This document shows positions 7,398-59,591 of a DNA stretch of 64,000 nucleotides, one piece after another (positions within the stretch are counted from its first letter, which is position 1; each line of letters starts with the position of its first letter). A model generated the notes under the pieces. It had not been told where the DNA came from, did no database searches, and saw only the letters and a list, made by a program, of their open reading frames with translations. The DNA is from a virus. The stretch is taken from the IMG/VR virus record IMGVR_UViG_3300049846_001717, positions 34,056 to 98,055 of that record. The stretch is one strand, 5' to 3'. Made by a program: the position numbers and the translations under genes.

Positions 7398-7470
7398 TTG
7401 CTCTTCTAGGGATCGAACCTAGAGTTTCCTGGGTCAGAGCCAGGCGTGTTGCCAGTTACACTAAAGAGCA
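7398..7470 (-). tRNA. tRNA-Gln(CTG)
   Basis: CCTGG-CTCTGAC-CCAGG. Confidence 0.92.
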
Positions 7471-7793
7471 AAATGTTCTTTTCTATGACAGTTGGAACAT
7501 AGTACAATACATTTTTCAACTTCTTGTAAAATTCTTGTCTTACCCCACGATCCCGCAGAAACCATTGATCCGATGTTACCGTGTTTAATGTTTGGATCTG
7601 TATGATGAAAATCTAGACATGCCGGATGTGATTCGGGGCATCGTTCACATTTCAATGTAGACTTGAATTGTTTCCACCATTCTTGCATTTCCTTACGACG
7701 GGTCTGTTTTCTTTGCAAGTACGAATCTTTATTGTTCAGATAATGTTGTTTGTTATACTGATCTTTCTGTTTTTTGGACCACTTATTTGACAT
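7461..7793 (-). CDS. HNH endonuclease
   Basis: CERC...LDFHH...CIVLCSNCHRKEH; GGAG SD before ATG at 7793; stop overlaps tRNA-Gln 5' end. Confidence 0.85.
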   Translation of the reverse strand: MSNKWSKKQKDQYNKQHYLNNKDSYLQRKQTRRKEMQEWWKQFKSTLKCERCPESHPACLDFHHTDPNIKHGNIGSMVSAGSWGKTRILQEVEKCIVLCSNCHRKEHFAL

Positions 7794-7860
7794 AATACTC
7801 TCCAATTTTGAGAGGTTGTTATGTATAAGTAGTCTGACCCAAACAGTTTCAGTCAGATAA

Positions 7861-8046
7861 TTACAACTCACTACATGGGATACAGAATGGTGCTGCGACC
7901 TGACGTTTCTTTTCTTCATCGAATCCAACGTCAATGAATTCGATTTTGTCTTCCGGGATGAAATCCGAACAGTTGACGCAAATCCACGAAATCTGTGATT
8001 TACCGTTTTCGATGACCTGCTTCACATTGCGTTTACGAACCAACAT
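7861..8046 (-). CDS. small Zn-ribbon protein
   Basis: CVNC...CIPC. Confidence 0.55.
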   Translation of the reverse strand: MLVRKRNVKQVIENGKSQISWICVNCSDFIPEDKIEFIDVGFDEEKKRQVAAPFCIPCSEL

Positions 8047-13701: not shown

Positions 13702-14037
13702 TTAAGGGAATTCTAGCAGATAGTGACGCAGTCGATGGCACGTTGCACATCGTAGTTCACACTTGTCGAGTTCTTTCTTGAGTTCTTCCCATCGGAAGAT
13801 GTACTTACCACTGATCTTGAATTCTTTTACCGTGGGATCCATATGGTCAAAATCGTAACAGACCGGATGGAAGGTTTTCTTGCAGTCCACGCAGATGCCG
13901 CCGAGATAAGCAACGGCTTTGATTTTGACCTCGGCGGACCTTGTAGCTTTGATACAGGTCGAACATTTGACACGAGTGTCGTGGTACTTGGGCTTAGGAA
14001 TGTATTCCTTGCCACAATCACATCGATATAGTTTCAT
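13702..14037 (-). CDS. HNH endonuclease
   Basis: YLGGICVDC...YDFDH...ELDKCELRCATCHRLRH. Confidence 0.85.
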   Translation of the reverse strand: MKLYRCDCGKEYIPKPKYHDTRVKCSTCIKATRSAEVKIKAVAYLGGICVDCKKTFHPVCYDFDHMDPTVKEFKISGKYIFRWEELKKELDKCELRCATCHRLRHYLLEFP

Positions 14038-24825: not shown

Positions 24826-25080
24826 TTAGATCACACATTTGAACTGATCGGCTATAATATTTTTCCGTACTGGAAAGGACGCACGATGTATAAGTCGATT
24901 ACCATCCCGGCTCTGCACAGAATCCTCCACAATATAGTTTGGAATCTTATTGGTGAACACGTTCGCCACATAGTTGATCGTGCCGCTACCCAGGTAAAAC
25001 TCCACGTAACACCGGCCATCCGTCACATACAGATCGTACGGTAACACACCGGCGCTACAAGCAATGATGTATTCAGTCAT
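24826..25080 (-). CDS. tandem paralog family member 1
   Basis: Y-I-I...VANV...IP...FPVRKNI..DQF. Confidence 0.8.
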   Translation of the reverse strand: MTEYIIACSAGVLPYDLYVTDGRCYVEFYLGSGTINYVANVFTNKIPNYIVEDSVQSRDGNRLIHRASFPVRKNIIADQFKCVI

Positions 25081-25331
25081 GGTAATATGATTTCAAAGTC
25101 TGCCGCCGTGATACCAGGTCTGACCGGAAAACTCACGACATATCGTCGTAGACCGGCGATCGGGCTAACCTCATATAGTTGCATCTCAAGATCCGGGATT
25201 TCACCAAAGTCCACGTTCGCAACGGACCAGATGGTACCCGTATCGATTTCAAATTCCAAATAGCACCGATTGTTGTAAACTTCTATATCCGATGGCGGAT
25301 TGTCGGTACATGCAATGGGATAGGGTTTCAT
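25077..25331 (-). CDS. tandem paralog family member 2
   Basis: YPI...SVANV...IP...FPVRPGITAADF. Confidence 0.82.
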   Translation of the reverse strand: MKPYPIACTDNPPSDIEVYNNRCYLEFEIDTGTIWSVANVDFGEIPDLEMQLYEVSPIAGLRRYVVSFPVRPGITAADFEIILP

Positions 25332-25573
25332 TGGAGCACAATGTAAAAGTCCGCCGACGTCACTTCGGGACGAAGACTAATCGTCACAATGACGTCACTT
25401 GGTGAACGCGTGATCGTTTTGACTTGGTCCGGGATATCAACCCAATCAATCCCCGCGATCGAATATAAACACGGATTCCCCGTCAGCGGTTTGGTCCATC
25501 GCAGATATAACGTGTGAGTACCCACGGACATATAGTCAGGACGAATGCCGCATACAATTTTGTATTTGCTCAT
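25328..25573 (-). CDS. tandem paralog family member 3
   Basis: YKI...SIAGIDWVDIP...LRPEVTSADF. Confidence 0.82.
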   Translation of the reverse strand: MSKYKIVCGIRPDYMSVGTHTLYLRWTKPLTGNPCLYSIAGIDWVDIPDQVKTITRSPSDVIVTISLRPEVTSADFYIVLQ

Positions 25574-25830
25574 ATGATATGATATGTAAAATCATCCAAT
25601 GTAATACCGGGACGAAGTCGTAAGATTGCGGTCATGTCGATGCCACGCGACTTGGATACATACGTCATTCCAAACGAGTTGGAGGGAATATCACGCCAAT
25701 GAACACCCGCGATCGACGCCAATGGATCCACGCCAGGGGCTAGATGCAGCCATTCAATAATCAGTAGATTCTCTTCGGTTCTGATACTGATCGGATACCG
25801 GGTCATGAGAATTTCGTAACGACCGTTCAT
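25570..25830 (-). CDS. tandem paralog family member 4
   Basis: YEI...SIAGVHWRDIP...LRPGITLDDF. Confidence 0.82.
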   Translation of the reverse strand: MNGRYEILMTRYPISIRTEENLLIIEWLHLAPGVDPLASIAGVHWRDIPSNSFGMTYVSKSRGIDMTAILRLRPGITLDDFTYHII

Positions 25831-26087
25831 TAGTATAACCGAAATTGAAAATCGGATAGTGTCACGCCAGTACGAAGATGCAGCATCATCTGCAAATGTC
25901 CCGTGTCATCGTACTGTTGTTGTCGTATCAATCGGGACTCCGGAATTCGATGTATCGGCACTTCGGCAATCGACAGTAATGGTTCTATCTTTGATGATAT
26001 GTTGAACCATGACAAGATCAAGTATCCATTTGTCACCTGACAATGATCCGGCATGTGTTTGACGACAATCGTGTATTTGCCGATCAT
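25830..26087 (-). CDS. tandem paralog family member 5 (start corrected to MIGKY)
   Basis: SIAEVPIHRIP...LRTGVTLSDF; ATGA coupling. Confidence 0.8.
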   Translation of the reverse strand: MIGKYTIVVKHMPDHCQVTNGYLILSWFNISSKIEPLLSIAEVPIHRIPESRLIRQQQYDDTGHLQMMLHLRTGVTLSDFQFRLY

Positions 26088-26347
26088 ACGACCACCATTG
26101 TGAAATCGTACTGGGTCACAGTTTCTCGAAGGTATACGAACATTGTAATTTGTACACTCCCGTCGGCAAATGCCACACGACGGACGAATCGACAATGTCG
26201 AGGAATATGCGTGAACGGCACTCCAGCGATCGTCACGGCCGGAAATGTACGATCCGGTAATCGTTCCCAATTCAAAATTAATTGATGTTGCCACACCGCC
26301 CATCGATCGATGGCGTGTGACGTGCGAATTTCATACGGACCATTCAT
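26084..26347 (-). CDS. tandem paralog family member 6 (start corrected to MNGPY)
   Basis: TIAGVPFTHIP...LRETVTQYDF. Confidence 0.8.
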   Translation of the reverse strand: MNGPYEIRTSHAIDRWAVWQHQLILNWERLPDRTFPAVTIAGVPFTHIPRHCRFVRRVAFADGSVQITMFVYLRETVTQYDFTMVVV

Positions 26348-26604
26348 ACAATTTTCACGATGAAATCGTCGTTGGTCAATCCCACACGGAGGTTCAGAAT
26401 CATGACAGAATTCACCAGACCGTCCGAACGGAGGGCCGTGTGTGTTCGATACACGGAGAACGGAATGTCCATGACAGACACACCGGCAATGGAAAGCACC
26501 GGTACGGTAGGATCGGATAATGCGAACCACATCAACTTCAATTGCTGCTGATCTACCCAACCTTGTGTCGGCGATATCGTACATCGAATCTCATAAGGCT
26601 TCAT
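26344..26604 (-). CDS. tandem paralog family member 7 (start corrected to MKPYE)
   Basis: SIAGVSVMDIP...LRVGLTNDDF. Confidence 0.8.
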   Translation of the reverse strand: MKPYEIRCTISPTQGWVDQQQLKLMWFALSDPTVPVLSIAGVSVMDIPFSVYRTHTALRSDGLVNSVMILNLRVGLTNDDFIVKIV

Positions 26605-26883
26605 ACCAGCTCCATAATGAAATCCGCCGTCCGGATTCCCGGTCGCACCGGAAAGGCAACCAGCCATCGATAGTGATAGGGGGAGCCGTTCGAGCAGACG
26701 ACCCCGTCGCGGAACGGCGATTCGATCCACACCACATCCGGAATATCCGTAATTGGAATACCACACACTGTGCGCCGGACACGGGCCAGACCGTGTGGAC
26801 CACCATGTGAGATACATCACGCCGCTGATAATACTGGTGGCATGGGGTGACCGGGTACACCGGACCGGATATCGTGCGGTCAT
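26601..26883 (-). pseudogene. tandem paralog family member 8, frameshifted near 26772
   Basis: MTARYPVRC...CPA, then in shifted frame TVCGIPITDIP...FPVRPGIRTADFIMELV. Confidence 0.75.
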
Positions 26884-27143
26884 ACCACCACCAATTCGAA
26901 ATCCTTCGACAGAACTCCCGATCGCACCGGAAAGCCGAGAGTCCATCGATATCGATTGGGTACGCCAAGGATCAGAGTCTCATCACACTGTACACCCGGG
27001 ATATCTTCGATCGGGATCCCACAGACCGAGATCGCCGGACACCTTACTTGGCCCGTGAAATACCAAATGAAATAGACATTGTCGTTGAGCTTATATCGGG
27101 AGTCCGGCAGTCGGATACACCGGACCGGATATCGTGCGGTCAT
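26880..27143 (-). CDS. tandem paralog family member 9
   Basis: MTARYPVRC...SVCGIPIEDIP...FPVRSGVLSKDF. Confidence 0.82.
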   Translation of the reverse strand: MTARYPVRCIRLPDSRYKLNDNVYFIWYFTGQVRCPAISVCGIPIEDIPGVQCDETLILGVPNRYRWTLGFPVRSGVLSKDFELVVV

Positions 27144-27397
27144 ACAATCCTCACTTCGAAATCCTCTGGCATCACGCCGGCCCGGACTGGAAAACCCACC
27201 GTCCACCGATGTGAGTCCGTGATCACGCTGGATTGCGGATCTTCATGGCACCACACCCGTGGAATATTTGCAATCGGAACATCACAAACCGTGAGTGCCG
27301 GACACGGGCTGCGAAATTTAGTCCACCACACGAAATAGATACAGTCTTCGAGCTTATATCGAGTATAGGGGACTTGGGTACAATGGAGAGGGTACAT
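27140..27397 (-). CDS. tandem paralog family member 10
   Basis: TVCDVPIANIP...FPVRAGVMPEDF. Confidence 0.82.
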   Translation of the reverse strand: MYPLHCTQVPYTRYKLEDCIYFVWWTKFRSPCPALTVCDVPIANIPRVWCHEDPQSSVITDSHRWTVGFPVRAGVMPEDFEVRIV

Positions 27398-27500
27398 ATT
27401 TACCTAAATGTGTATAACAGTTCTGGCTGATTTTACCTATCGCCTACAGGAAAACGGACTAGGTCGGGGTATTCGCAATGCGATCCTGTTTGGGCCCTAT

Positions 27501-27785
27501 TTATTCAACACCGAAATCCTGGATGGTCAAGCCCTCACGGATCGGAAATCTGATTTTGATGCCGATCCGATCCTGAACGGCCCGATCCTGAACGGCGAAC
27601 TCCGGCAGGCCGTCAATGTAGTATGTGATCTCACATCGGGGGATCTGATCCACAATCCGGCCACAGACCGTCACGATCCATGCGTCGTTTGGCTTCATAC
27701 CCAACACGATCTCGGCCCATCCCTCACAAAATGTGCATCGCCACAGGCTCGTGCCGATGATGCGTACTGGATATTTGACTACCAT
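27501..27785 (-). CDS. tandem paralog family member 11
   Basis: KYPV...TVCGRIVDQIP...FPIREGLTIQDF. Confidence 0.8.
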   Translation of the reverse strand: MVVKYPVRIIGTSLWRCTFCEGWAEIVLGMKPNDAWIVTVCGRIVDQIPRCEITYYIDGLPEFAVQDRAVQDRIGIKIRFPIREGLTIQDFGVE

Positions 27786-28018
27786 GAGAAATCCTTAAAT
27801 TGAACGCCGGGCCTCACATTGAAGAAGAAAATATAGCCGGAGTGATCGGTCGAGGGCCGCCAGGTGCCGCGTGGGATCAGGTTGGCATCGACATCACAGA
27901 CGGTCAGGATGATCTCATGTGGATCGCCGATATGTTCGATCAGGATGGCGGCGACGCCGTTAAAGACGTCCATTTCAAGGATCCGCTTATTGCAGACGAC
28001 CGGATATTTGGCTACCAT
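27779..28018 (-). CDS. tandem paralog family member 12
   Basis: KYPV...TVCDVDANLIP...FNVRPGVQFKDF. Confidence 0.8.
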   Translation of the reverse strand: MVAKYPVVCNKRILEMDVFNGVAAILIEHIGDPHEIILTVCDVDANLIPRGTWRPSTDHSGYIFFFNVRPGVQFKDFSW

Positions 28019-28266
28019 GTGAAATCATCCGCGCCGACGCCGGATCGGACCGGAAATGCGATGGTGACCGTATTGGTGCCGTAGATATTCCAATTCGGGA
28101 TATCAACGAATGACACGCCACACACGGTCAATTCGATCTTATTCATGAGCCGTGCGGCCAAATGCACCATGATGTGCGTGCGTTCGACGCCGCGACTGAA
28201 TGAGGTCTTGACCGTTTGTGAGACGCCCAGAATGGGGTGATTGGCAACGATCGTGTACTGTTTCAT
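28012..28266 (-). CDS. tandem paralog family member 13
   Basis: QYTI...TVCGVSFVDIP...FPVRSGVGADDF. Confidence 0.8.
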   Translation of the reverse strand: MKQYTIVANHPILGVSQTVKTSFSRGVERTHIMVHLAARLMNKIELTVCGVSFVDIPNWNIYGTNTVTIAFPVRSGVGADDFTW

Positions 28267-28613
28267 TACATGTCCAGTGCTTCCCGATCCGGGTAGCGGG
28301 CCTCGCTCGAGATATGGGAGAACATCGGCAGGTCGATGGCCTCGGCCAACTGGCCTCGCAGGGCGATCAGGTCCGCCAGATGTTTGTCGAACTTGACCAG
28401 ATGCGCTCGTGCCTTCGCCGAATCACTGGCGGATGCGGACAGGTTGGCATCAAAGGTATTTTCGTCGCCGCGCCGAGCTGACTCGGATGCCATCTGATCC
28501 GTTTCGATAGACCAGGTCAGGCAGGCATCCAGCTTCCCTGCGGCTTCGTGGAGATAAGAGGCCTTCGAGGTCATGGCCGAGATCAGTTTCAGGTCCGGAT
28601 AGGATCGGGGCAT
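28266..28613 (-). CDS. hypothetical helical protein
   Basis: TAATG coupling on both sides. Confidence 0.65.
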   Translation of the reverse strand: MPRSYPDLKLISAMTSKASYLHEAAGKLDACLTWSIETDQMASESARRGDENTFDANLSASASDSAKARAHLVKFDKHLADLIALRGQLAEAIDLPMFSHISSEARYPDREALDM

Positions 28614-28861
28614 TAGTACACTTCCTCGTATTCGACGTTGGTGAAGCCCAGATCCGTGAAGACCTGCTTCAACAGTTCGTGTGACTCTTCCTGATCGATG
28701 GAATATCGCTTGTTGTTGACCATGATGGCAACGCGGCCGGCCTCATCCTCGATCCGGATGGGGGTTGTCATTCGTGCCCGCAACGCGATCAATTCGGCTC
28801 GATCATCGTTCTGGGCTTTGATGTTGGCGGCGTTGATCGCCGTACGCTTGGGATTGGACAT
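28613..28861 (-). CDS. hypothetical protein
   Basis: ORF in co-oriented run. Confidence 0.65.
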   Translation of the reverse strand: MSNPKRTAINAANIKAQNDDRAELIALRARMTTPIRIEDEAGRVAIMVNNKRYSIDQEESHELLKQVFTDLGFTNVEYEEVY

Positions 28862-28863
28862 GG

Positions 28864-29118
28864 TTACACGATCTCCACTTCGAAGTCATCCTCAGTGAGG
28901 GATGGACGGACGGCAACGCTATGTTGGGGGCCTTCCATATAACGGCCGAGTGCGTCCGGGTTGATCACACTCGACATCACGGGAATGTCATCATACGCCA
29001 CCCCGGCAATGGAAATGATCCGATGTCGGCGTTCGGCGATCGAAATCCAGAACCGTCGCATTGATGCCGAGCGCTCGAACAACACTCGGCCCGTTGCTAC
29101 GATCTTGTACTTAGGCAT
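28864..29118 (-). CDS. tandem paralog family member 14
   Basis: MPKYKIVATG...SIAGVAYDDIP...AVRPSLTEDDFEVEIV. Confidence 0.82.
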   Translation of the reverse strand: MPKYKIVATGRVLFERSASMRRFWISIAERRHRIISIAGVAYDDIPVMSSVINPDALGRYMEGPQHSVAVRPSLTEDDFEVEIV

Positions 29119-29380
29119 TGACGATCTCCACTTCGAAGTCCTCGAGCGTGAGGGATGACCGGATGGCCAACGCCGGCTCGCCGTTGAAGGTAACGGTCCT
29201 GCCGAACATGCCACGCCTTCGGAAGGAGAAATCCCCTACTTTGGGAATGTCCTCCCACAGAACACCAGCCACCGAAATGATTTTGTCGTGGTGAACGGCC
29301 GGCGCGACCCATACCCGTTCACTTCTGACGGATGGTTCGATCTTGATAGGGCCAGTGGCGACGATCTTGTATCTAGGCAT
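29111..29380 (-). CDS. tandem paralog family member 15
   Basis: YKIVATG...SVAGVLWEDIP...AIRSSLTLEDFEVEIV. Confidence 0.82.
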   Translation of the reverse strand: MPRYKIVATGPIKIEPSVRSERVWVAPAVHHDKIISVAGVLWEDIPKVGDFSFRRRGMFGRTVTFNGEPALAIRSSLTLEDFEVEIVNA

Positions 29381-29645
29381 TCACGATCTCCACTTCAAAG
29401 TCATCGGCCGTGAGCGACCAGCGAACGGCGACGTATTGCCACGGACGGCCCACCCGATCTTCATCACGCCGACCCAACCACGGCGGCGACTCCAATGACA
29501 GAAGTTCGGGAATATCTTCCCACATCACGCCCGCCACCGAAATGATCCGGTAATCTACCCTGTCCGGGTAGATCCACAGTCGGTTCACATTGTCGGAATA
29601 TGCAAAGGACACCGGGCCAGTGGCCACGATCTTGTACTTAGCCAT
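29373..29645 (-). CDS. tandem paralog family member 16
   Basis: YKIVATG...SVAGVMWEDIP...AVRWSLTADDFEVEIV. Confidence 0.82.
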   Translation of the reverse strand: MAKYKIVATGPVSFAYSDNVNRLWIYPDRVDYRIISVAGVMWEDIPELLSLESPPWLGRRDEDRVGRPWQYVAVRWSLTADDFEVEIVNA

Positions 29646-29904
29646 TGACGATCTCGATCTCGAAGTTCTGCTGCGACAACATGGGTCGGACTGCCACGCC
29701 CTGCCGGTCTACGTAGCCTGTGACATCGCGGCCATAGACCCTTTCATGGCCGTTCAACGTGGGGATCTTATCCCACGGCACTCCAGCGATCGACAGAATA
29801 CGAACGTCGGCCGATTCCGCCTCGATCCACGTGCGTTCTGATGTGCTCGTGAATCGGAGCTCACCGGTGGCGACGATCTTGTACTTACGCGTCCGGATCG
29901 TCAT
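29638..29904 (-). CDS. tandem paralog family member 17
   Basis: KYKIVATG...SIAGVPWDKIP...AVRPMLSQQNFEIEIV. Confidence 0.8.
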   Translation of the reverse strand: MTIRTRKYKIVATGELRFTSTSERTWIEAESADVRILSIAGVPWDKIPTLNGHERVYGRDVTGYVDRQGVAVRPMLSQQNFEIEIVNG

Positions 29905-30130
29905 CGTCCATCCCCTCGAAGTCCTGCTCATCGAACGGGACGAACGGACTGCACTCCACGCACTCGTCCGAATCGATCTCGAAGGGCACGCCGCATTCGG
30001 GACAAACTTCCGTCAACGAGTCGAACAGATCCGCCAGTTCGGCATCATCCGGCAACTCGGCCGGCGACGGGCCATCGCCCACTTCCTCGAGCAAGGCGTC
30101 AGACAGTTCGATATCGGTCTTTTTCGGCAT
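29885..30130 (-). CDS. highly acidic protein with CxxC-CxxC
   Basis: very D/E-rich; CPEC...CVEC. Confidence 0.65.
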   Translation of the reverse strand: MPKKTDIELSDALLEEVGDGPSPAELPDDAELADLFDSLTEVCPECGVPFEIDSDECVECSPFVPFDEQDFEGMDDDDPDA

Positions 30131-30643
30131 GGGAAGGAATTCAGTGAAAGGGTTATCGCGTCAGCTCGAGGATAGCTCGAACCCCACGGATGGTCCGCTC
30201 GAGCACATACGACTCGATCAGTCGGGTGACCACGCGCTCCAGCAGTGCCTCCTGCTCGGGATACGACGGCACGGGCTCGACCTTCTGCTCGCAGATGGCG
30301 AGATAGAGCATTTCCATCGTCTCGCGCGACTGCTCCAGTTCCCGCAGCAGTTCGGTCACACGTTCGGGACTGGATGCACTGGCCCGATCCCATCGACTTC
30401 CGGCGTCGGGACCGTCTCAGCGTGGTCGCGGATTTCCTTGAGCGTGAGCATTAGAGCATCTCCATCATGTAGGCGACTTCCTTCTCCAACTCGGTCATCT
30501 GCGCGATCTCGGACTGCGACATAGGGACTCCGGGATGAAGGGATGAATCAAAGGTAGGATATACGAAGTTTCGTGGCAAGCGTGAGAAGGGTGTTACAAT
30601 CCACGGCGTATCGCCTAACCCGTTGCCAGGTCAGGCGATACAC

Positions 30644-33600: not shown

Positions 33601-33816
33601 TTAGAACATGTTGCGGATCACGATGAGGTTGTACGCGACGTAGAACCAGCCGAAGAACATGTGCAGGATGGCCCAGAGGATGGAGCCGTTGGCCTTCCAG
33701 CTCAACGCGAGCGCGAGCGCGTGACCGATCGTGCCGAGTTCGCTGCCGAGTGACGCGGATTCCGCACCGACTCGCCAGTTGGTACCGTTCTTGGTCTTGC
33801 CGTTGATGTGCGGCAT
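33601..33816 (-). CDS. small membrane protein
   Basis: LALSW..NGSILWAILHMFFGWFYVAY. Confidence 0.75.
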   Translation of the reverse strand: MPHINGKTKNGTNWRVGAESASLGSELGTIGHALALALSWKANGSILWAILHMFFGWFYVAYNLIVIRNMF

Positions 33817-33960
33817 CAGTTGCTCCGCTTGAGGTATTCGACGGGGATCTGCACCGACCGAAGGGCCTTGGCGATCACCGTGACGAAAGCCTCCGGCTTG
33901 CCGATGTCGCCGATGGCGAACTTGATGGCTCTCACTTGTCCCCCTTCGCCGTACATGTGG

Positions 33961-34581
33961 TCAGTCACCTTGCGGCGTCTCCCGGAGCCGGTCGAGCAGG
34001 GCGGCGAGGGCCGCGTTGTGCGCGTCATTGTCGCGCTCGATGAAACACCCCGAGCACTCCCCGTAAGGACACGACGGTTCGTGCTTCACGCCGTCGCCGG
34101 ACTTTCGCATCCCCTCCACGATCCCGGCGATGCGCTCCCGTTCGGCGCGGCGACCGCGCTCGTACTCCACGGCGGCGACGGCGGCGCGGTAGGCGTCGCG
34201 GGCGTGGTCGTACTGCTCGCCTGTTTCCGCCGGACCGTTCGGATGCGACTCGACGTGCAATCCAGCGTACACGTAGTCGAACGCCCGCGACGTGACCGCC
34301 TCCCACGCCTCGCGCTCGGTCGCCGCGTCTGCGCTCGCCGTCAGTGGCTCGCTCCCGCTCCCCTCGACCGAGGCGCGGGGGGCAAGATGCGCGGACGCGG
34401 GGTTGCCGGGGCAGCCGTTGGAGATGCACAGCCCGTTGATGAGTTCGAGCTTGCAGAACTCGCAGTCCTTCCTCTCGTCACTCGGTTCACTCGGCACGGT
34501 CGGCGCTGCCGGGATGTACGTCTGCGAATCCTGATGCACCGGATAGCGCAACGGGTCCGGCTTGTTCGTCTCACTCGGCAC
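33961..34581 (-). CDS. hypothetical protein, shares module with 35669-35986
   Basis: YRAAVAAVEYERGRRAERERI...LAALLDRLRE. Confidence 0.7.
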   Translation of the reverse strand: MPSETNKPDPLRYPVHQDSQTYIPAAPTVPSEPSDERKDCEFCKLELINGLCISNGCPGNPASAHLAPRASVEGSGSEPLTASADAATEREAWEAVTSRAFDYVYAGLHVESHPNGPAETGEQYDHARDAYRAAVAAVEYERGRRAERERIAGIVEGMRKSGDGVKHEPSCPYGECSGCFIERDNDAHNAALAALLDRLRETPQGD

Positions 34582-35888
34582 GGTCGGCCTCGGGGGTGAT
34601 CATCAGAGCGTCACCCCGATACGCTTCCCCGCCATCAGGCGGGCCGTGCGGGACAGCTGGACCTCGACCTCACGCTTGGCCTGCTCGAGACGGACGGTCG
34701 CGAACTGCTTGCGAAGGGCGGTCATCACCTGCGTCTGCACCTGCGTGGCCTTGGTCTGCATTGTCGAAGCTCCGTCAGAGGGTGTGAATGAAAGATACTA
34801 CGAACGGCCCAGAAGTCAATACCCCAAAAATTTCGTTACAATCGGGGTCGTGGGCCTCCGTACACGGTCCCGGTCGTAGCGACCGGAGTGCATGACCTTC
34901 CTGTGTTCACAGCATCGACACCACACATCCCATCCACCCCTCCGTCAACCCAGTTTCTATCGCTCATAACTGCCCCCCCTCCGGTGCTTGGTGACATAGC
35001 GTGCCCTCCACTTGTCAATCCGGTAGACGAGATTAATCCCGTTCATCCCCGGCGCGTTCGGTGATACAGCCATCACAATGACAAGTGCCATCGGTCCGAG
35101 GAGCGTGCCGATCAACGGCATCGCGTTCGTGATCGAGCATTCCCACCGCGCCGATAGAAGCCAAGCCAGTACGCCGCACAGAAGCCACGCGGCAAAGAGG
35201 CCAGCGTCATCGTACCCGTTCATCGTCCACCTCGTCAAAAGGGGTGAGGTCGCTCGGGGTGACGATGGCACACTTGGCCGGGTTGTCGGCGAGGTGGATG
35301 ATGACGACGGCGCGGTCCATCGGGCTGTCGGCGATGACGTCTACAGCTTCCAGAGGCGTGACGCCCCAGAAATCCGCGATTCTGGGTTCCGGGGTGTATC
35401 GGAACTTCGACATGTCTACTTCTCCTTTTGTGACAGGGTGAGCGTGGGGCGGTCAACGGACGTCATGCGAATCTCCGCTTTAGCAAGTGGAATACCACGA
35501 CCAGCGCCACCAGCAACCAGAACAGGGGCCACATGACCGCGCCCATCAACCAGAAAAGCGCCGACTTGCCACCATCGTCGCGCATTTCGTCCTCATCCCA
35601 CACGATGCCGAACGCCAGCGTGGCGCACGCAACGACGATGTAGGTAACCAACTGCCAGAAAACGGTGGTCATGCCTCCCCCTCCCGGAGCCGGTCGAGCA
35701 GGGCGGCAAGAACTGAATCCACCGTCCCGCAATGGCAGAACGACGAATACTGCTCGCACACGTCGCACACGCCGTTCGTGTATTCGGGCCTGCGCTTCAT
35801 CCCCTCCACGACCTGAACGATGCGCTCCCGTTCGGCGCGGCGACCGCGCTCGTACTCCACGGCGGCGACGGCGGCGCGGTAGGCGTCG
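34128..35888. repeat. 71-nt exact direct repeat (34128-34198, 35818-35888)
   Basis: identical CGATGCGCTCCCG...AGGCGTCG. Confidence 0.9.
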
Positions 35889-35986
35889 AGGTACTCATCG
35901 CAGGTTCGACAGCGAATCGCCCCGCTCCCATTGCAGACCTCGCAGGTCATGCGGTTCGATACCGCCTCCCGCTCCGCGTCGCTCAT
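35669..35986 (-). CDS. Cys-rich hypothetical protein, shares module with 33961-34581
   Basis: CEVC..CRTC; shared repeat. Confidence 0.7.
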   Translation of the reverse strand: MSDAEREAVSNRMTCEVCNGSGAIRCRTCDEYLDAYRAAVAAVEYERGRRAERERIVQVVEGMKRRPEYTNGVCDVCEQYSSFCHCGTVDSVLAALLDRLREGEA

Positions 35987-36281
35987 GCGTCCTCCAGCAA
36001 CGCGGCGAGCGCGGCGGGGATGTTGTCCGCGTTCACGGTGGCCCCCGCGTCGAGCCACACCACGGTGCCCCACTTGTGAAGCGTCACGTCCTCCCGCTCC
36101 TGCATCGTCGCCACGGCCAGCGCGAGCGCGGCGGCGCGGCGCAACGGTCCGCGCGCAATCCCCATCCTGTCGCCTTCGGGATAGGCTTCCCGTGCGGCGA
36201 ACGCGGCCAGTGCCTCCGCATCCTCGCGCAACTGCTCCGGCGTGGCGTCCCGCAGCGCGTCGGCGAGCGGCGCGTTGATTG

Positions 36282-38552: not shown

Positions 38553-38924
38553 TTACTTCAACATCTCGATCACCGACTGCAGCGCCATGTACTCCGGGGA
38601 AAAGATGCCCATCGCCGCATCGTATCCGGAAATGAAGGCGACGATACTGAACATCACACCACCGAAAAGGCCCAGAATGATACGCCACTCTCCGTAGGGG
38701 TCGTCGCCGCACGTCGAATAACTCTTGGTGAACTTGACGCAGAGAACCACCATCACGATGCTGACGATGAAGAGGAAGGCGGAGTACACGCCGAAGGCGA
38801 ACTCGCCACGCACGAGGATGAGCCAGAGGCCTTCGACGGTGGAACCGAACTTCGCCGCAAGCACGGAGAGAATATCCTGCACGTTCTTGGCGATGGTAGT
38901 GGTAACGCTGGTGGTATCGAACAT
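38553..38924 (-). CDS. membrane protein
   Basis: two TMs; own cassette promoter. Confidence 0.7.
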   Translation of the reverse strand: MFDTTSVTTTIAKNVQDILSVLAAKFGSTVEGLWLILVRGEFAFGVYSAFLFIVSIVMVVLCVKFTKSYSTCGDDPYGEWRIILGLFGGVMFSIVAFISGYDAAMGIFSPEYMALQSVIEMLK

Positions 38925-39028
38925 CGTGATTTGTCCTATGAAAGGGTATGTGAGTAATATAGACCATATGAAGGATAAGTCAATCCTCTTGATTTTTCGT
39001 TACAATCCGTGGCCTTTCGGCCTGGCGG

Positions 39029-39562
39029 TCAGAACGACACCACCTTGCCGAGGGCCTTACGGACCCTGGTCCGGCCGGCCGCACCGGAGTTCGACATCAT
39101 CCAGAGTGCCCAGTCGAGCAGCGTGAGCGGGATACCCGTCTTTCGGTCCTTGAACCCCATCGGGTGCGGCATCCCATTGAGGGCCGTCCGCAGGTCCGAG
39201 TCGTTCGCCAGACGCCAGTTGAGTTCGTCGCTGGCCGTCCGCTCCCGGTCGTGCTTGGCCGCGAGCACCATCTTGCGACGGTCCCGCTCGAGAGGCGAGT
39301 CATTCGACTCCTTGGCGGCCTTCCCGACGCACACGTTCCCGACGATGAATTCCTTGCCGTTGGCGTCACGGATGATGCAGCACTCGGCGATCCCCTGCGA
39401 GCAGTAGGCGCAGGTGCCCATCGGCTGGCCGGGAGCGCCGACTTCGCACGTGACCCCTGGGAACTTCGGATCGATGTACTTGATCGGCCCCACGCGATAC
39501 TCGACCCCGACGCAGCGGAAGGGGGCGACACCGAGGCCAGCACGCTCGAACGGATGGGTCAC
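39029..39562 (-). CDS. Zn-binding hypothetical protein
   Basis: HPFERAGLG...GTCAYC...FIVGNVCV. Confidence 0.7.
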   Translation of the reverse strand: MTHPFERAGLGVAPFRCVGVEYRVGPIKYIDPKFPGVTCEVGAPGQPMGTCAYCSQGIAECCIIRDANGKEFIVGNVCVGKAAKESNDSPLERDRRKMVLAAKHDRERTASDELNWRLANDSDLRTALNGMPHPMGFKDRKTGIPLTLLDWALWMMSNSGAAGRTRVRKALGKVVSF

Positions 39563-48189: not shown

Positions 48190-48911
48190 TGATTGGGCTC
48201 CCTAGAAGCCTTGAGGTAACTACGACTTACGATGAATGACGAAAGGTATAGCGGTCCCCTGGTAAAGTCAAGGGGGTCAAACGGACCGATTGTAACGAAA
48301 AATCGGGTATTGCTCAAAATGATGACATTGCCGTAGTGCTGTTGGAGTAGCCGCGATAAATATGATAGTATTATCGCTCACCAACCCTTCGACTCCGCAT
48401 CCTCATTATCTGAGAGAGATCTATCGATCCCCCCTCGGACTTGCACCGAGATTGTACGGGTTAAAAGCCCGCAAGATTAGCTACGGATACAGATTCGTGT
48501 GCGCTCTACACCTACACTACGGCAATATCGACATCTCAAAAAACACTGCTTTGAAACATCCAACCTACCACATCTTTCAACACATAGTAATCACAATATA
48601 ACCGAGCTGCTGAATCCGGTGCACAGGGGCCGGGCTAGGTACGTGTGACTGACTCCATTCGCACAGTCGGGCGGCACTTGAAGGGTGTGCCGTGCCCTAT
48701 CGTCGATCGTTACGTCATGGGAATGATTCTCCAGGGTTCCTACTTGGCTGGCCGAGGCGTTCGGGCCGCCGTCCTACACTCACATCAGATCGGTCGAGCA
48801 GGGGACTCGACATGCCGATCATTGGTACGATACTATCTGTGGCGCGGTGACGCGCGCGTCCACTCGTACCTACTGGTGCTCCGCTTGGACTGAGCCGAGC
48901 CGTGTGAGCGG

Positions 48912-49271
48912 TTAGCGTGCTTGCGGCACCTTCAAGTAGTGAATGAACGTGCCGTACTTCTTGGCGGCCATCACGGTCGTATCGCTGACGGGCACGGGTC
49001 GATCGCCGGTCCAGTCCCATTGCGTACAGTTGACGAGATTGCCGAAATACCATCGCATGTTCGGGGCGAGCTTGGACTTGGCGCCGAAGATATCGCCGGC
49101 GTCACACCGACCGGGCAGTGCATGACGAGCGACGAAATACATCACTTCGGGCGTGCCATCCACGGTCAGGATGATCTTGTCGAACTTGCGACCGGTTTCG
49201 ATATAGGGCTGACGCGCTGGGTCGATTAGACCCAGCAACGTCTGCAGCAACTGATTGTGATTCTCGAGCAT
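48912..49271 (-). CDS. hypothetical phage protein
   Basis: GRKFDKI...GDIFGAKS..AP....GN. Confidence 0.7.
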   Translation of the reverse strand: MLENHNQLLQTLLGLIDPARQPYIETGRKFDKIILTVDGTPEVMYFVARHALPGRCDAGDIFGAKSKLAPNMRWYFGNLVNCTQWDWTGDRPVPVSDTTVMAAKKYGTFIHYLKVPQAR

Positions 49272-51332
49272 TTATTCTCCCGTCAAAAGACGATTGAGCG
49301 TGCGGACGATGCCGTTGACCTGGTCCGCCTTCACGAACGCCGCCGACTTGCCGTACATCTGACGGAACCCGGCGTGCGTGGTTTCGTGGTCACTGATGAA
49401 ATACGACAACACGTTGATATCCGCGAGGCGGAACTGGTTCATGAGACGGCGCGTGTGATCCCACGCCGGCTGACCGCTGTACGAATACGACCGACTCTTG
49501 TGGATGAACTGGAACATCGGTTCGCCGTCGGACAGATTGATGAAATACTTCGTCCCCGCGGCCTTGCCCATCGCCAGCAGCTCATCCTTCACCGCCTCAA
49601 AGCACAGGCCTTCCGGCGTGCCACCTGCGACCGAGATATACGGCACGACCGACCGCAACTGATTGAACGTGTGCCGGCGCGAATCGTAGAGAATCGCGAG
49701 GTTCGCCGCTTCGTGATCGGCATCCCGCACCGCGACCACGCAGTTGAGGGTCCGCGTCTTTTCGGCGGCGTAAGCAATCGCCACGGCCACCGCCATCGCG
49801 TTGATGTACTTGTCCCCGTCCATCGATCCCGACAGGTCAACGTCGATCCAGACGGTGCAGGGTTCCTTCCGTTCCACGAACGTATGCGAGAACACCGAGG
49901 ACTGGCCGTAACCGAGGCCGGCGATCAGGCGCTTGTCCAGCCGGCCCGACTGCTGACGGGTGAACGTCAACGGCGATTCGTCCTGCGTCACCGCGATTCG
50001 TGCCGCGAGGATCTGACCCATCCGCATCCCCTGCGACAACGCCTTCACCGAGTCGGGATTCTTGTTCCCGCCACGATAGTTCCGCGTGTAGGAGAACGGG
50101 AACACCTTCGACTGCGCCGTCTTCGCGGACACATCCCGATAGATGATGACCTTCGCCTTGACGTCCTTGGCAATGAAATCGCCGTCAACTTCCTTGATAT
50201 CCGCCTTCGTATCCGAGAGCTGATCGAGCTGCGCCTGGACCTCGGCGGACGCCTTCTTCTTGTCGGTGTCGTGGTTGAGGAACTTGCGCTGCCGATCGAT
50301 GGCCCGGCCGACACGACCGAAATCCATATTGGGCAAATCGCCGATCTGGTTGCCGTCCTTCCCCTCACCCTTGCCCTTCGTCGGCCTGTTCTGGTTCTCG
50401 TAGGTGAGGCTATGCTTGAGCATGATCTCCACGATCTTCACCGCATCCACGAACAACGACGGCAACTGATCCGCGGTCGCGGCGGACGGATTACGGAACG
50501 GGAACATCTTCCACTTCGGGTCCGCATCGCCACGACCCTCCAGGCCCTTCGGCGTGAGGTTGGCGATCTTGCGGATCTCCGCGAGGCCCGGCATGACGGC
50601 GGGATTATAATGCTTATTCGTCATATTGATGACGAACAGCATATAGTTCTCGACGCACAGGGTGTGGAACCGCGGATCCTGCATCGCCTTGTCGATATCG
50701 GCGGAATGCCAATACTTGTCGTACATCGAATCGTAGTAGGGCTGGTAGCCCGGCGCCGACTGGTACATCCAGTAGTCGATGCGACGATCCTCGAGCACGT
50801 TCATCGCCATCTGCACGAGCTCGTACACCGAACCCTTCTCATTGGCACCGAGCGCCGACGCGGCGACCGGCGCGGCCGCCGGCCTCATCGGAATACCGAG
50901 TCGATTCGCGTCCGATTCGATCGACGTCTTGAGCTCCCGCACAAACGCCTCGAAGAGCGCGGACATCTCCGGCAGGAACTTGAACACGTAGTTCGACAGG
51001 AGACAGTGCGCCGCTTCGTGCAGCGCCGTGCCGACGAGCGAGTCCATGCTCGTCGGGTCCGTATCGGCCGAGATCACGATGGTCTTGCCGTCCGTGTAGG
51101 ACTGCTGACCACCCGAGAACACGACCGGATATTCCTGACCCGTAGCGATCTTCACGAACCCGGCGACCGAGCGCTGAATGCTGCGCAGATGCTCGAGGTA
51201 TTCGATGGACCCTTCGCTCACCTTCGACTGCAGGCCGGTGCCCGACTTCCCCATCCAATAGGACGAGTGCGAGGCCTTCACCGCGTCGGCCTTCGCCTTG
51301 AGGCGGGCCGCGATATGGGGGTTGCTATTCAT
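49272..51332 (-). CDS. vWA-domain protein with N-terminal HExxH metallopeptidase-like domain (MoxR partner)
   Basis: ALHEAAH, NVLEDRRID; DLSGSM, GGTPE, LSDGEP MIDAS. Confidence 0.9.
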   Translation of the reverse strand: MNSNPHIAARLKAKADAVKASHSSYWMGKSGTGLQSKVSEGSIEYLEHLRSIQRSVAGFVKIATGQEYPVVFSGGQQSYTDGKTIVISADTDPTSMDSLVGTALHEAAHCLLSNYVFKFLPEMSALFEAFVRELKTSIESDANRLGIPMRPAAAPVAASALGANEKGSVYELVQMAMNVLEDRRIDYWMYQSAPGYQPYYDSMYDKYWHSADIDKAMQDPRFHTLCVENYMLFVINMTNKHYNPAVMPGLAEIRKIANLTPKGLEGRGDADPKWKMFPFRNPSAATADQLPSLFVDAVKIVEIMLKHSLTYENQNRPTKGKGEGKDGNQIGDLPNMDFGRVGRAIDRQRKFLNHDTDKKKASAEVQAQLDQLSDTKADIKEVDGDFIAKDVKAKVIIYRDVSAKTAQSKVFPFSYTRNYRGGNKNPDSVKALSQGMRMGQILAARIAVTQDESPLTFTRQQSGRLDKRLIAGLGYGQSSVFSHTFVERKEPCTVWIDVDLSGSMDGDKYINAMAVAVAIAYAAEKTRTLNCVVAVRDADHEAANLAILYDSRRHTFNQLRSVVPYISVAGGTPEGLCFEAVKDELLAMGKAAGTKYFINLSDGEPMFQFIHKSRSYSYSGQPAWDHTRRLMNQFRLADINVLSYFISDHETTHAGFRQMYGKSAAFVKADQVNGIVRTLNRLLTGE

Positions 51333-51472
51333 ACGGGTAAGTTACCTAGATTTGGGTCAAAAGTCAAGGGGTCACCCGTAAGATGGTGCCCGGCAATCAC
51401 TTACGTTTGTTACAATCGACGGATTTTGGGGTTCGGCCAGTCCAGCACCGAACCCCAACCCCGAAATCCGTA

Positions 51473-52528
51473 TTACGAGAGATCCTCGATCTCCTGCTCG
51501 AGCTCGTCCGCGAGATCCTCATCGTCCATCTGCTCATCCGAGAGGTTCGTCGCGTCACCACCGAGGGCGATGATCTGGTTGATGCGGTCGGCGCGATCGA
51601 GGATCCGCGCCTCGACCTTCGCGAGCACCTTGCGCTTGCGCTCGAGTTCGGCGGTGTTGTCCACCGCCTTCACACCGACACCGTTCGCCAGATCCTGCGG
51701 GGTGTAGACTTCCTTGTGCGGGAGCTTGGCGAAGTCCCCGATCTCCGCGATCGGCGTGACCACGGCGGCGCGACCCTTCTGGTTGTTGTAGTCGGACGGG
51801 ATGCTGACCACGTTCGCCGGGTTGACGAGCATGACGAGCAGGCGGTGCGACCCACGACCCGCCCACGTGCTCGCGTACTCATGCGAGGCGAAATGGAGGC
51901 CGTACGAGCACGTGCGGTCACGGTCATCATCGACCGCGTTGCGCGGCATCGACACCTGCAGTTCGCCGTCCACGATCTGCATCGTGACGTTCCCGGCGGT
52001 CTTGGCGGTCGCGTACTCCGCCTTCTCCGCGTCGGTCATGAGCGACACCGGCTTGTAGAACACGCGACCCGAGTGGATATCGCGGTACGACTCCTGGACC
52101 GACTTGTACGCGACGATGTTGCCGTCGAGATCGATGAGGAACCCGTTGGCGACGCAGAACAGGAGCAGTTCGTTGCGGGCCGCGGCGGACGGGTTCTGCT
52201 CCACCTTCCGGAGAAACTTGAAGATGGGATCCGCCGAGTGACCGGCATCGATCATCGCGAGCACCTTGCTCGTGATCGCCGGGGAATACGGCGTCCCCTT
52301 GAAGGTGATCAGGTCGTTGACGAGAGCGAAATCCTTGTCGGTCGCGAGGAAGTTCCGCACCGAGGTCCGCAGGTCGGACAGCGCCGGGATGGCACCGAAG
52401 TCCTCGTTCTTGAGCGCGTCGAGGATCTTCGCGTAGTTAGGGTGGTCGGTCGGGATGACCGAGAGGACGCCGGCGAGGAACAGGGAAATACCGGCGGGGG
52501 TGATGAGGTACGCGGGCTTGCTGGACAT
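51473..52528 (-). CDS. rIIB: rIIB-like protein
   Basis: DGNIVAYK; MPRNAVDDD..RTCSYGLHF; VNPANVVSIPSDYNNQKGR. Confidence 0.85.
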   Translation of the reverse strand: MSSKPAYLITPAGISLFLAGVLSVIPTDHPNYAKILDALKNEDFGAIPALSDLRTSVRNFLATDKDFALVNDLITFKGTPYSPAITSKVLAMIDAGHSADPIFKFLRKVEQNPSAAARNELLLFCVANGFLIDLDGNIVAYKSVQESYRDIHSGRVFYKPVSLMTDAEKAEYATAKTAGNVTMQIVDGELQVSMPRNAVDDDRDRTCSYGLHFASHEYASTWAGRGSHRLLVMLVNPANVVSIPSDYNNQKGRAAVVTPIAEIGDFAKLPHKEVYTPQDLANGVGVKAVDNTAELERKRKVLAKVEARILDRADRINQIIALGGDATNLSDEQMDDEDLADELEQEIEDLS

Positions 52529-52577: not shown

Positions 52578-54803
52578 CTAACGCATCGACGCGATATAGT
52601 CAAGTACCACCTGCCGGTTTCCCGGCACGTTATGGCGGTAGCTATTCGCCCACATGGTTCCGATGAGCTGAAACATGGGAAACTCGTCGATCACGGACCG
52701 ATACGCCTCCGCCATCGTCTGCGGCGGCGTCTTGAGCGTCATCGACTTATGCACCTTCGCCTGATTGGCCGGATCCCGACGCAGGAACCGATTCACCAGT
52801 TCCATCGTCTTGTCCGACTTCGCGGTGTGCGTCCGTTCGCAGACCGTGTGCAGATTCGCGAACAACGGATGCACCTTGCCCAACTGCCAATGCTTGTACG
52901 CCAGCTCATCGAAGTAGATCGCGTCGGCATTGAGCGAGGAATAATAGTAAAACACCGTTTCCCTATTATTCTGCATCCACGATTTCACTTCGGCCTCGAG
53001 CGTGTCCGGCAACGACTTCCACACCGTCGCGTCGAAGTTCGGGATCTCCGCCGACTTGATCCCGTACACGGCCTCCGTGGCACCGAGGATCTTCAGCTGT
53101 CGCGCCAACACGATCATGTCGGTCATGTAGTCGAGACTGATATACCCGTACCGATTGGAGTAGGTGTCCAACGTGAGCGGAACGTAGTAATACATCTTAG
53201 CGCCCGTCGGCACGTTGACGCGAGACTCCCATCGCTGGCTTGCCGTCGAGAACCGATACAACGTGTCCTTGCCGACGCCCCGCAACGACGGCGGCACCTT
53301 GTACCCCGTGAGGGCCGAGGCCTTCACGATGAGATCCGCCGGCATCCCGCCGAAGAAATCCTGAATCTGCGCGTCCGTGATCTTCGTGGACTTGATGATG
53401 ATGGCGTGACCGACCTTGTGCCCGTACCGTGCGGTACGACCGCCCATCGTCTTGTTGACGAGCCGATCGTAGAGCAACGCCTTGGTCGCCGTGACGGTGC
53501 CCTTCGTCAGGTCATCCCGCACCACCACCGTCTCATTGCCCGGCCGCATCGAGATCTTGTCCACCGTCCGCTCGATGATCGCGGACTTGTCGCTGTTCTC
53601 CGTACCGTACACCGTGATCGTCGCCGAGGGGTCCAACGCCTTGAGCGCCTTGAGCGACCGCACCACGCCTTCCGTGTGGTTCACCGTAGACTGCTTCCAC
53701 TGCATCGTCGGCACCACCGACGCCAGGTGCGGGATCTCATTGAACGCCAACATCATCGTGAGCGCCTCCCATTCCGTCGCACACGCCGCGCACGACTTGG
53801 AGACTTCGACTGCCAGCTCCGGCAGTAACGTGGCGATCGCCCGACGAATGGCGTCCACCGTGCGGTCGGTGTATTTCAGATTATCACGCGATGGCACGAT
53901 ATCGACCGACCCGACCGGCAGGAACAGATCGATATGGTTGTACGAGAAGAAATATCGCTTCTCGTAATCGCCGTGATGCACCGCGCGGGGGAACATGGCG
54001 TCCGTCACCTGCACCGTGTACGGCACATTGCCCATGATCACGGTGAGATTGCCGGCGTTCCCGTACGGGTAGTGCGGACGGCGCGGGCGCTCCATCTTCC
54101 GCAGACCCCACCCACCGGCACGAAACTGATACGCGACCGGCTGAATCGGCGTGTGCGTACCTTCGACCGTGAGTGCGATGGGGAAATGCGGCGCGTACTT
54201 ACGCGCGGCCTGATGCACCTTGTCGAGATCGCCACGACGGATGGGGATACGAATGGTGACGCCGGTGTGCGCCATCGTCGGCGTGGACTGCACGTGATCG
54301 AGGCGCGGGACACTATCGGTCCCGATCGCCGCCATGAACAGATGCGACTGTCCATCCTTGCGGGCTTCCACCGTCCACGTTGCACCACCGTTGTAGCAGA
54401 ACGCCGTCTTGGAGCCGAGGCCGAAACCACCAACCTCATCGTTCGATCCGCTCTTGGTGCTCTCACCGTAGGACGTATAGACGTTCCACACGGTTTCCAT
54501 GTCCATGCCGATGCCGAAGTCCTGGAACACCAGCTCCGGTGCCATCGTCGTCGGCAGACTGAGCACCGGCGCCGTGAAGTCCGGCGACTTGACCAGCTGC
54601 TCGATCGTCATCCCACGGACCCGTGCGAGCGCGAGATACGCGTCGTACATATTCGTGAGATATTCTCGCACCATCGCGTCGATAGGATCGGCGTAGAGGC
54701 CGGAGAGCACCGTCATGATATGTGCACCGGCCTTCACCGTGAACGCACGACTGGCCTGCATCCCTGCGGCCGTGACCTTCCGAGCTTCCGTGATGATCTG
54801 CAT
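52578..54803 (-). CDS. rIIA: rIIA-like protein (GHKL ATPase)
   Basis: LY.DPIDAMVREYLTNMYDA; QDFGIGM; YGESTK..SN..VGGFGLGSK; PSRDNL. Confidence 0.88.
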   Translation of the reverse strand: MQIITEARKVTAAGMQASRAFTVKAGAHIMTVLSGLYADPIDAMVREYLTNMYDAYLALARVRGMTIEQLVKSPDFTAPVLSLPTTMAPELVFQDFGIGMDMETVWNVYTSYGESTKSGSNDEVGGFGLGSKTAFCYNGGATWTVEARKDGQSHLFMAAIGTDSVPRLDHVQSTPTMAHTGVTIRIPIRRGDLDKVHQAARKYAPHFPIALTVEGTHTPIQPVAYQFRAGGWGLRKMERPRRPHYPYGNAGNLTVIMGNVPYTVQVTDAMFPRAVHHGDYEKRYFFSYNHIDLFLPVGSVDIVPSRDNLKYTDRTVDAIRRAIATLLPELAVEVSKSCAACATEWEALTMMLAFNEIPHLASVVPTMQWKQSTVNHTEGVVRSLKALKALDPSATITVYGTENSDKSAIIERTVDKISMRPGNETVVVRDDLTKGTVTATKALLYDRLVNKTMGGRTARYGHKVGHAIIIKSTKITDAQIQDFFGGMPADLIVKASALTGYKVPPSLRGVGKDTLYRFSTASQRWESRVNVPTGAKMYYYVPLTLDTYSNRYGYISLDYMTDMIVLARQLKILGATEAVYGIKSAEIPNFDATVWKSLPDTLEAEVKSWMQNNRETVFYYYSSLNADAIYFDELAYKHWQLGKVHPLFANLHTVCERTHTAKSDKTMELVNRFLRRDPANQAKVHKSMTLKTPPQTMAEAYRSVIDEFPMFQLIGTMWANSYRHNVPGNRQVVLDYIASMR

Positions 54804-59499: not shown

Positions 59500-59591
59500 G
59501 TGAGTAATATACCGTGACCTCGGTCAAAGTCAAGTATTTCGTTACAATCGACGGGTTCGGGGCCTCACAAATCTGCGAGGCCCCTTGCCTT

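Follow-up and report, generated by a model that had tools for sequence, protein, structure and literature searches.

What would a large phage do with some twenty diverged copies of one small gene? The question is raised by a stretch of 64,000 nucleotides (hereafter the window), positions 34056-98055 of the 98,055-bp IMG/VR virus record IMGVR_UViG_3300049846_001717, in which 20 members of a single gene family are encoded, all on the minus strand. Seventeen of them (m01 to m17; 16 intact and one frameshifted) stand head to tail at positions 24826-29904 of the window, and three (d1 to d3) are distal. The window proteins are 79-94 aa in length. CheckV estimates the completeness of the record at ~45%, which corresponds to a whole genome of roughly 220 kb. 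The explanation preferred here, with a probability of about 45%, is that the family is a repertoire of binders used for host takeover or counter-defence.

The homology of the copies was examined first at the protein level. An earlier inspection of the letters and their open reading frames (ORFs), here called the sequence-only reading, had described about 20 paralogues of one family, and proposed that all-versus-all alignment should support their homology. All-versus-all BLASTP does support it, joining the copies in a single connected network, with E-values of 1e-12 for m01-m02, 1e-7 for m02-m03, 1e-11 for m04-m05, 1e-28 for m09-m10, 1e-23 for m14-m16, 1e-29 for d1-d2, and 1e-4 for m14-d1. A profile built from the 19 intact window copies recovered from the 98-kb record the same 19 copies and both halves of the frameshifted m08, and nothing more; there was no match in the first 34 kb of the record. 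The six-frame translation of the window contains 22 matches to the C-terminal motif [VIL]R-x2-[VIL]-x3-[DNQH]F, of which 20 belong to the family. The ORFs, the BLASTP network, the profile, and the motif thus agree on 20 paralogues of one homologous family, at the places where they had been reported.

The anatomy of the proteins was analyzed with an alignment of 38 family sequences, 19 from the window and 19 external. Y4, R72, and F80 (numbered as in m01) show little or no variation, and strong conservation is also seen at W28, the I-x-S-V-A-G-V strand, I46-P47, V71, L75, and D79. The core is formed by strands 1 (Y-x-I-V) and 7 (D-F-E-x-I), by strand 4 together with the I-P turn after it (I-x-S-V-A-G-V...I-P), by the W that ends strand 3, and by the V-R at the end of strand 6. 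Three variable segments, V1 (2-26 residues), V2 (4-22 residues), and V3 (8-40 residues), show an excess of S, N, H, G, and Q and a deficit of I, V, F, and K. In the predicted structures they form exposed, polar segments on a fixed core. AlphaFold2 with the family alignment predicted m01 as a seven-strand all-beta domain, with a predicted local distance difference test score (pLDDT) of 92.7 and a predicted template modelling score (pTM) of 0.81. The divergent d2 was predicted with the strand order of m01 (pLDDT 83.9), with a long low-confidence insert in V2 and a helix that replaces strand 5. The small beta-rich scaffold expected from the letters is therefore what both models display. The proposed division into a conserved core and hypervariable segments is also seen, for example among the copies of the YKIVATG group, whose cores share 53-79% identity and whose variable parts share 14-29%. 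Variation is not confined to loops, as had been supposed; it extends over the predicted strands beta2 and beta5 in full, together with the first half of beta6, and the mean column entropy is about equal in strands and loops. The proteins have a net charge near zero. They most likely act in the cytoplasm of the infected cell, since they contain no signal peptide and no hydrophobic or membrane segment.

The family had not been recognized from the letters, and database searches also left it without a name. With the 38 members as queries, no family in Pfam, PHROGs, or NCBIfam was matched by more than one member, the best E-values being 0.0006-0.01, and a profile search of PDB sequences gave no match. 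Structure prediction followed by a Foldseek search had been proposed as a check; the fold is confidently predicted, and the m01 and d2 models have no match at E ≤ 0.001 in PDB or BFVD. A search of the ESM Atlas gave no match. Alignment with VIA-align against 48,161 PDB chains reached a best Z of 4.1 for m01, at which EIIB, CS, and ACT domains were tied, and 2.2 for d2; VIA-align reports Z values of 7-8 as typical for orphan models, and both family models score lower. Ig, FN3, CS/HSP20, and other beta-sandwich folds were among those not aligned above Z 4.1. No known fold can be named for the family, and a new fold is not thereby proven.

The copies are strongly diverged from each other. The closest pairs show 48-56% amino-acid identity, and 56% is the maximum. 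The number of synonymous substitutions per site (dS), estimated with the method of Nei and Gojobori (NG86), exceeds 1 in every pair and is often saturated, and the whole-gene ratio of nonsynonymous to synonymous substitutions (dN/dS) is 0.2-0.5. Across pairs, the core is 41-79% identical, whereas the variable part is 5-37% identical. The proportion of nonsynonymous differences (pN) in the variable parts is 0.40-0.73, reaching at least 0.56 in 14 of 16 pairs, and is near the proportion of synonymous differences (pS). Within the YKIVATG group, the variable pN is ~0.6, roughly equal to pS. All 19 full-length copies remain open despite saturated dS. The frames of the 19 copies are kept by selection, as indicated by their being open though dS is above 1 in every pair, together with the dN/dS of 0.2-0.5.

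The IQ-TREE phylogeny pairs outside sequences with individual window copies: P0038 is sister to d3 (support 99/91), P0032 to the pair of d1 and d2 (97/83), and P0021 to m15 (89/71). Because the closest pair is only 56% identical, dS is saturated, and outside sequences branch with single copies, the duplications are ancient and older than the split from other, unsampled phages. The array is accordingly a repertoire that has been retained, not a fresh amplification. The copies are not redundant, because the subfamilies have separate counterparts in other environmental sequences. The longest DNA repeats among the family genes are 73-80% identical over 80 nt.

Two mechanisms of rapid variation were considered and set aside. 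A recent gene accordion, the mode of expansion suggested in the sequence-only reading, is contradicted by the maximum identity of 56%, by dS above 1 in all pairs, by the lack of near-identical copies among the 20 genes, and by the external sequences that are sister to single paralogues. Variation driven by a diversity-generating retroelement was examined as well. No template/variable repeat pair is present at or near the family genes, and no reverse transcriptase was found, there being no RVT_1 match in the 98-kb record, which represents ~45% of the genome.

Relatives outside the window are few. An exhaustive HMMER search over 1.84 billion representative proteins gave 39 matches, made up of 18 of the window's own proteins, 3 long repetitive proteins, and ~18 relatives, which are stand-alone proteins of 76-104 aa. 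The three long proteins (P0019, P0035, and P0037) were rejected, as their scores are sums of repeats of 2-7 bits each. Ten relatives that were looked up, and two further cluster members, all come from short ENA or Logan contigs (0.5-3.2 kb), and the longest outside contig seen with a relative is 4.1 kb. A word-indexed search returned the window's own proteins and three external members only, all three also present in the HMMER set. No relatives were found in IMG/VR, JGI metagenomes, or GTDB genomes, nor in GenBank phages by tblastn with three members as queries. One JGI metagenome match (L014) was rejected, as only 18 N-terminal residues are in common and it fails the profile. The family is rare, and its presence is lineage-specific.

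The genomic setting was compared with the closest complete relative, G001, a genome of 217,729 bp with direct terminal repeats that is collinear with the record. It was found through the 311-aa ATPase encoded at 59592-60527 of the window. G001 has no family member. The window region of 24-40 kb (16 kb, array included) has no counterpart in the collinear G001; its flanks match G001 positions 52740-53201 and 38892-39218. The gap in G001 that matches the array is occupied by five translationally coupled paralogues of 208-248 aa (G001 48376-52242, or L005:8376-12242), which share YATEYTRW, CPxC, and GMT motifs and have no Pfam match. Homology of these five with the 20-gene family was rejected (hhalign probability 0.1%). 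The site is suggested to be a nursery for tandem families, because the corresponding position in a related phage is occupied by another tandem family.

At 32.1-61.7 kb of the window, the minus strand contains ~26 promoter cassettes, among them those that precede d2 and the d3 operon. Each is composed of the 17-nt element CCGTCGATTGTAACGAA, a -35 hexamer TTGACT, a spacer of 16-17 nt, and a -10 hexamer TATATT, often preceded by a GC hairpin. There is no cassette inside the main array. The gene rIIA and other early-type genes share the region with the family genes. No T4-type late promoters were found on the gene strand in the region, and a generic promoter/terminator scan of 23-32 kb gave nothing above the shuffled expectation. 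From the cassettes we infer early expression driven by the host polymerase, more strongly for d1-d3 than for the main array.

The binder repertoire is preferred because a fixed core with polar variable segments, long retention, a predicted cytoplasmic location, an accessory early region, and lineage-specific presence coincide in this family. The genes constitute an old, selectively retained multigene family of stand-alone proteins (76-104 aa), predicted to be seven-strand all-beta domains, whose fixed core carries V1-V3, nearly wholly different between copies. The variable surface of each copy would bind a distinct host protein, or variants of one. The genes lie in a variable (hyperplastic) region. 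Expression of the main array would be polycistronic, with translational coupling, from early-type promoter cassettes upstream of it, and the distal copies would be expressed from such cassettes directly in front of them. The guess of a diversified binder repertoire made from the letters thus seems to fit the predicted anatomy and the genomic setting. A more specific version, in which a novel beta-fold library neutralizes a different host defence or factor with each of the ~20 copies, possibly through a shared docking face (Y4, R72, D79-F80), is speculative and rather doubtful.

Several points weigh against the binder repertoire. The models have no similarity to known anti-defence or takeover proteins in Foldseek and VIA-align comparisons. 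The synonymous saturation rules out a test of positive selection. The invariant Arg, Asp-Phe, and Tyr could constitute a shared active or docking site instead of a pure scaffold. The timing of the main array is less certain than that of d1-d3, because the main array is without its own cassette, and the record covers only ~45% of the genome.

Tandem families of tiny proteins recur in variable regions of large phages, and almost none of them has a known function. The locus analyzed here is a clean case, with 19 intact copies, a confident compact fold without a solved neighbour, a sharp split between constant and variable parts, and signs that the copies have long been maintained as separate genes. 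If the copies bind distinct host proteins, the locus would supply a small beta scaffold not seen before together with a set of new inhibitors; a single partner common to all would reveal a new adaptor system. The family itself is new, while tandem arrays of small genes are already known in jumbo phages.

Phage G and 121Q contain tandem arrays of more than 30 similar genes (Hua et al. 2017, PMC5646251). Those arrays and the present one share several kb of head-to-tail copies of small genes, the lack of an assigned function, and an interpretation as tandem duplication. The copies in phage G and 121Q were described as very similar, whereas no two of the present copies exceed 56% identity and their synonymous sites are saturated, and the family is unrelated to any that has been described. 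The T4-type hyperplastic regions and their cassettes of promoter early stem-loops (PeSLs) (Arbiol et al. 2010, PMC2839356; Comeau et al. 2014, PMC4122927) offer a second comparison. Variable genes between conserved collinear blocks are common to both, and in both a stem-loop with an early sigma-70-type promoter recurs at gene boundaries. Unlike in T4 PeSLs, the 17-nt element is particular to the window phage. Cassette-mediated shuffling cannot explain the internal structure of the main array, because no cassette is present within it.

Gene accordions are known for poxvirus K3L (Elde et al. 2012, cited in PMC13359090) and for T4, in which tifA was amplified (Srikant et al. 2022, PMC9391042), and accordion dynamics have been discussed for large phages (PMC13359090, PMC9391042). 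As in accordions, a virus here has tandem copies of a gene that possibly counters host defence. Accordions are recent, near-identical, and unstable, whereas the 20-gene array is ancient and diverged.

The predicted anatomy also resembles that of engineered and natural binders. FN3 monobodies and Ig-like domains are binders built on beta scaffolds. By analogy, the present family has a small beta domain in which the core is constant and the exposed segments differ in sequence and length. Unlike in FN3 and Ig binders, the variation spans whole predicted strands as well as loops, and no PDB chain was aligned with the family models above Z 4.1 (m01) or 2.2 (d2).

The invariant residues are the starting point of the alternative that survives best, though it is unlikely. 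The proteins could be a library of adaptors, in which an invariant face (Y4, R72, D79-F80, I46-P47) docks onto one machine used by all copies (a chaperone or protease of the host, for instance, or a phage AAA+ ATPase), and the variable segments pick the clients. Strictly invariant polar and aromatic residues are unusual in a pure scaffold, the phage has several AAA+ proteins and GroEL, and d2 and d1 are directly downstream of the 311-aa ATPase. This proximity is offset by the relative G001, which retains the 311-aa ATPase (51% identity) without any family member, and by the promoter of d2 itself and a hairpin that parts d2 from the ATPase gene.

A role in the virion, either as internal proteins injected with the DNA or as decoration proteins, is quite unlikely. 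T4-type phages load arrays of diversified small proteins (IPI-III) into their heads, which serves as a precedent, and the N terminus M-x-K-Y is conserved in the family. The conserved N terminus, however, is modelled with high confidence as strand 1 of the fold, and the alignment contains no L/I-x-E cleavage motif after it. The location and control of the genes do not favour a virion role either: they are distant from the baseplate block at 1-30 kb of the record, d1-d3 lie behind sigma-70-type cassettes, and the region has no T4-type late promoter. The T4 capsid targeting sequence is a detachable N-terminal tag of ~10 aa ending in an L/I-x-E protease site. A tag of this kind was rejected for the family, as there is no conserved Glu near position 10 and the N terminus belongs to strand 1.

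Polymorphic toxin systems are known to include small, diversified immunity genes arrayed in tandem (PMC3482391). Following this pattern, the proteins might be antidotes to diverse toxins, such as host abortive-infection toxins or the effectors of competitors, or superinfection-exclusion proteins, which would suit their small size and predicted cytoplasmic location. No toxin gene or domain was found beside the array, and no immunity family was matched in Pfam, PHROGs, or NCBIfam. The proposal, which is improbable, also overlaps with the counter-defence version of the binder repertoire. That the genes are functionless leftovers of duplication or ORF artefacts is highly improbable; one copy is indeed frameshifted, but 19 frames are open at saturated dS, the core motifs are conserved, relatives occur in other samples, and the fold is confidently predicted for m01 and d2.

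The main array had been described as 17 translationally coupled genes. Their position and coupling are as described, with two corrections: m08 is frameshifted, and a pair of unrelated genes splits m13 from m14. On the minus strand, the left part of the array consists of m01 (24826-25080, 84 aa), m02 (25077-25331, 84 aa, with an ATGA overlap with m01), m03 (25328-25573, 81 aa), m04 (25570-25830, 86 aa), m05 (25830-26087, 85 aa, starting at an internal ATG of a 157-aa ORF), m06 (26084-26347, 87 aa), m07 (26344-26604, 86 aa), m08 (26601-26883), m09 (26880-27143, 87 aa), and m10 (27140-27397, 85 aa). It is followed by a 103-nt gap at 27398-27500, the sole intergenic gap of its kind in the array, in which no convincing promoter or terminator was found. 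Beyond the gap are m11 (27501-27785, 94 aa, with the longest V3 in the window), m12 (27779-28018, 79 aa), m13 (28012-28266, 84 aa), m14 (28864-29118, 84 aa, of the YKIVATG subgroup), m15 (29111-29380, 89 aa), m16 (29373-29645, 90 aa), and m17 (29638-29904). The last is 88 aa long if it starts at the ATG at 29904, and it then has a 20-nt overlap with the upstream gene at 29885-30130. All of these are profile matches (m08 as two halves). The distal copies, likewise on the minus strand and matched by the profile, are d1 (58955-59221, 88 aa), d2 (59218-59499, 93 aa), and d3 (61073-61327, 84 aa), which is the second gene in a two-gene operon with 61324-61593.

Neighbouring family genes overlap by 1-8 nt at 15 of 16 junctions, nine of which are ATGA; the exception is the 103-nt gap. 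The inserted pair at 28266-28861 on the minus strand consists of two coupled genes (28266-28613 and 28613-28861) for proteins of 115 aa and 82 aa, with a 1-nt overlap on the m13 side and a 2-nt gap on the m14 side. The pair belongs to no known family and does not match the profile of the 20-gene family. The gene m08 is broken within a GTGTGTG run, as would be expected if a single TG unit had been lost. Its two halves, N (26764-26883) and C (26601-26765), do not share a reading frame and match profile positions 2-40 (E 1e-4) and 39-87 (E 1e-9), respectively, and the N half reads on into m07.

The GC content at third codon positions is 0.45-0.58 in m01-m10 versus 0.65-0.74 in m11-m17, with the step at the 103-nt gap, and these values match those of the left and right flanks, respectively. 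The boundary between left genes of ~0.5 and right genes of ~0.7 or more crosses the array, and it differs from the boundary of the family clades. In the m14-m17 block, the most conserved DNA is at the gene junctions (29088-29167, 29350-29429, and 29615-29694). The codons of the C-terminal E-V-E-I-V in this block hold a GGAG ~8-10 nt ahead of the next ATG, and part of the conservation at the junctions may reflect a ribosome-binding site for the downstream gene.

Three cassettes, all on the minus strand, were read base by base. The d2 cassette (59506-59584) has an 8-bp GC hairpin at 59584-59559, the conserved element at 59554-59538, a -35 TTGACT at 59533-59528, and, after 16 nt, a -10 TATATT at 59511-59506, with the ATG 6 nt on. 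Other cassettes leave 20-26 nt with GAG/GGAG between the -10 and the start codon; in the d2 cassette the -10 ends 6 nt before the ATG (59497-59511), so a d2 transcript would have almost no leader, or none at all. The cassette of the d3 operon (61620-61673) has the element at 61673-61657, a -35 at 61648-61643, and, after 17 nt, a -10 at 61625-61620. The third, at 30551-30640, is degenerate, with a hairpin, CCGTGGATTGTAAC, and TTGCCA/TACCTT; small ORFs separate it from m17, and no other candidate promoter lies closer to the array on its upstream side. Two mini-ORFs of ~23 and 31 codons, joined by TAATG, lie at 30360-30522 between this cassette and the genes that lead into the array.

The phage is a large, uncultured, myovirus-type phage. 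Genes for a T4-gp6-type baseplate wedge protein and a tRNA nucleotidyltransferase precede the window in the record, and the baseplate gene and a block collinear with G001 occupy 1-30 kb of the record. The window encodes GroEL, rIIA, several AAA+ ATPases, an ABC ATPase, and an OmpA-domain protein, nearly all of its genes being on the minus strand. The closest GenBank phages are an uncultured 484-kb phage and Microcystis phage Mel-JY01, with protein identity of only 27-28%.

The 20-gene family is by far the largest paralogous set in the record, every other set being a pair. One minus-strand pair, at 7461-7934 and 13702-14037 of the window (BLASTP E < 1e-5), has G001 homologues for both members. 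A second pair is formed by the plus-strand ORFs 33808-34599 and 35732-36079, or by minus-strand overlaps of these. It contains a 94-nt repeat with 94% identity (34108-34201 and 35798-35891), which is far younger than any duplication in the 20-gene family. At 61979-62082 there are four or five tandem units of 23 nt, each composed of TAGGGGAAACCC and a variable part, which resemble iterons or a protein-binding array.

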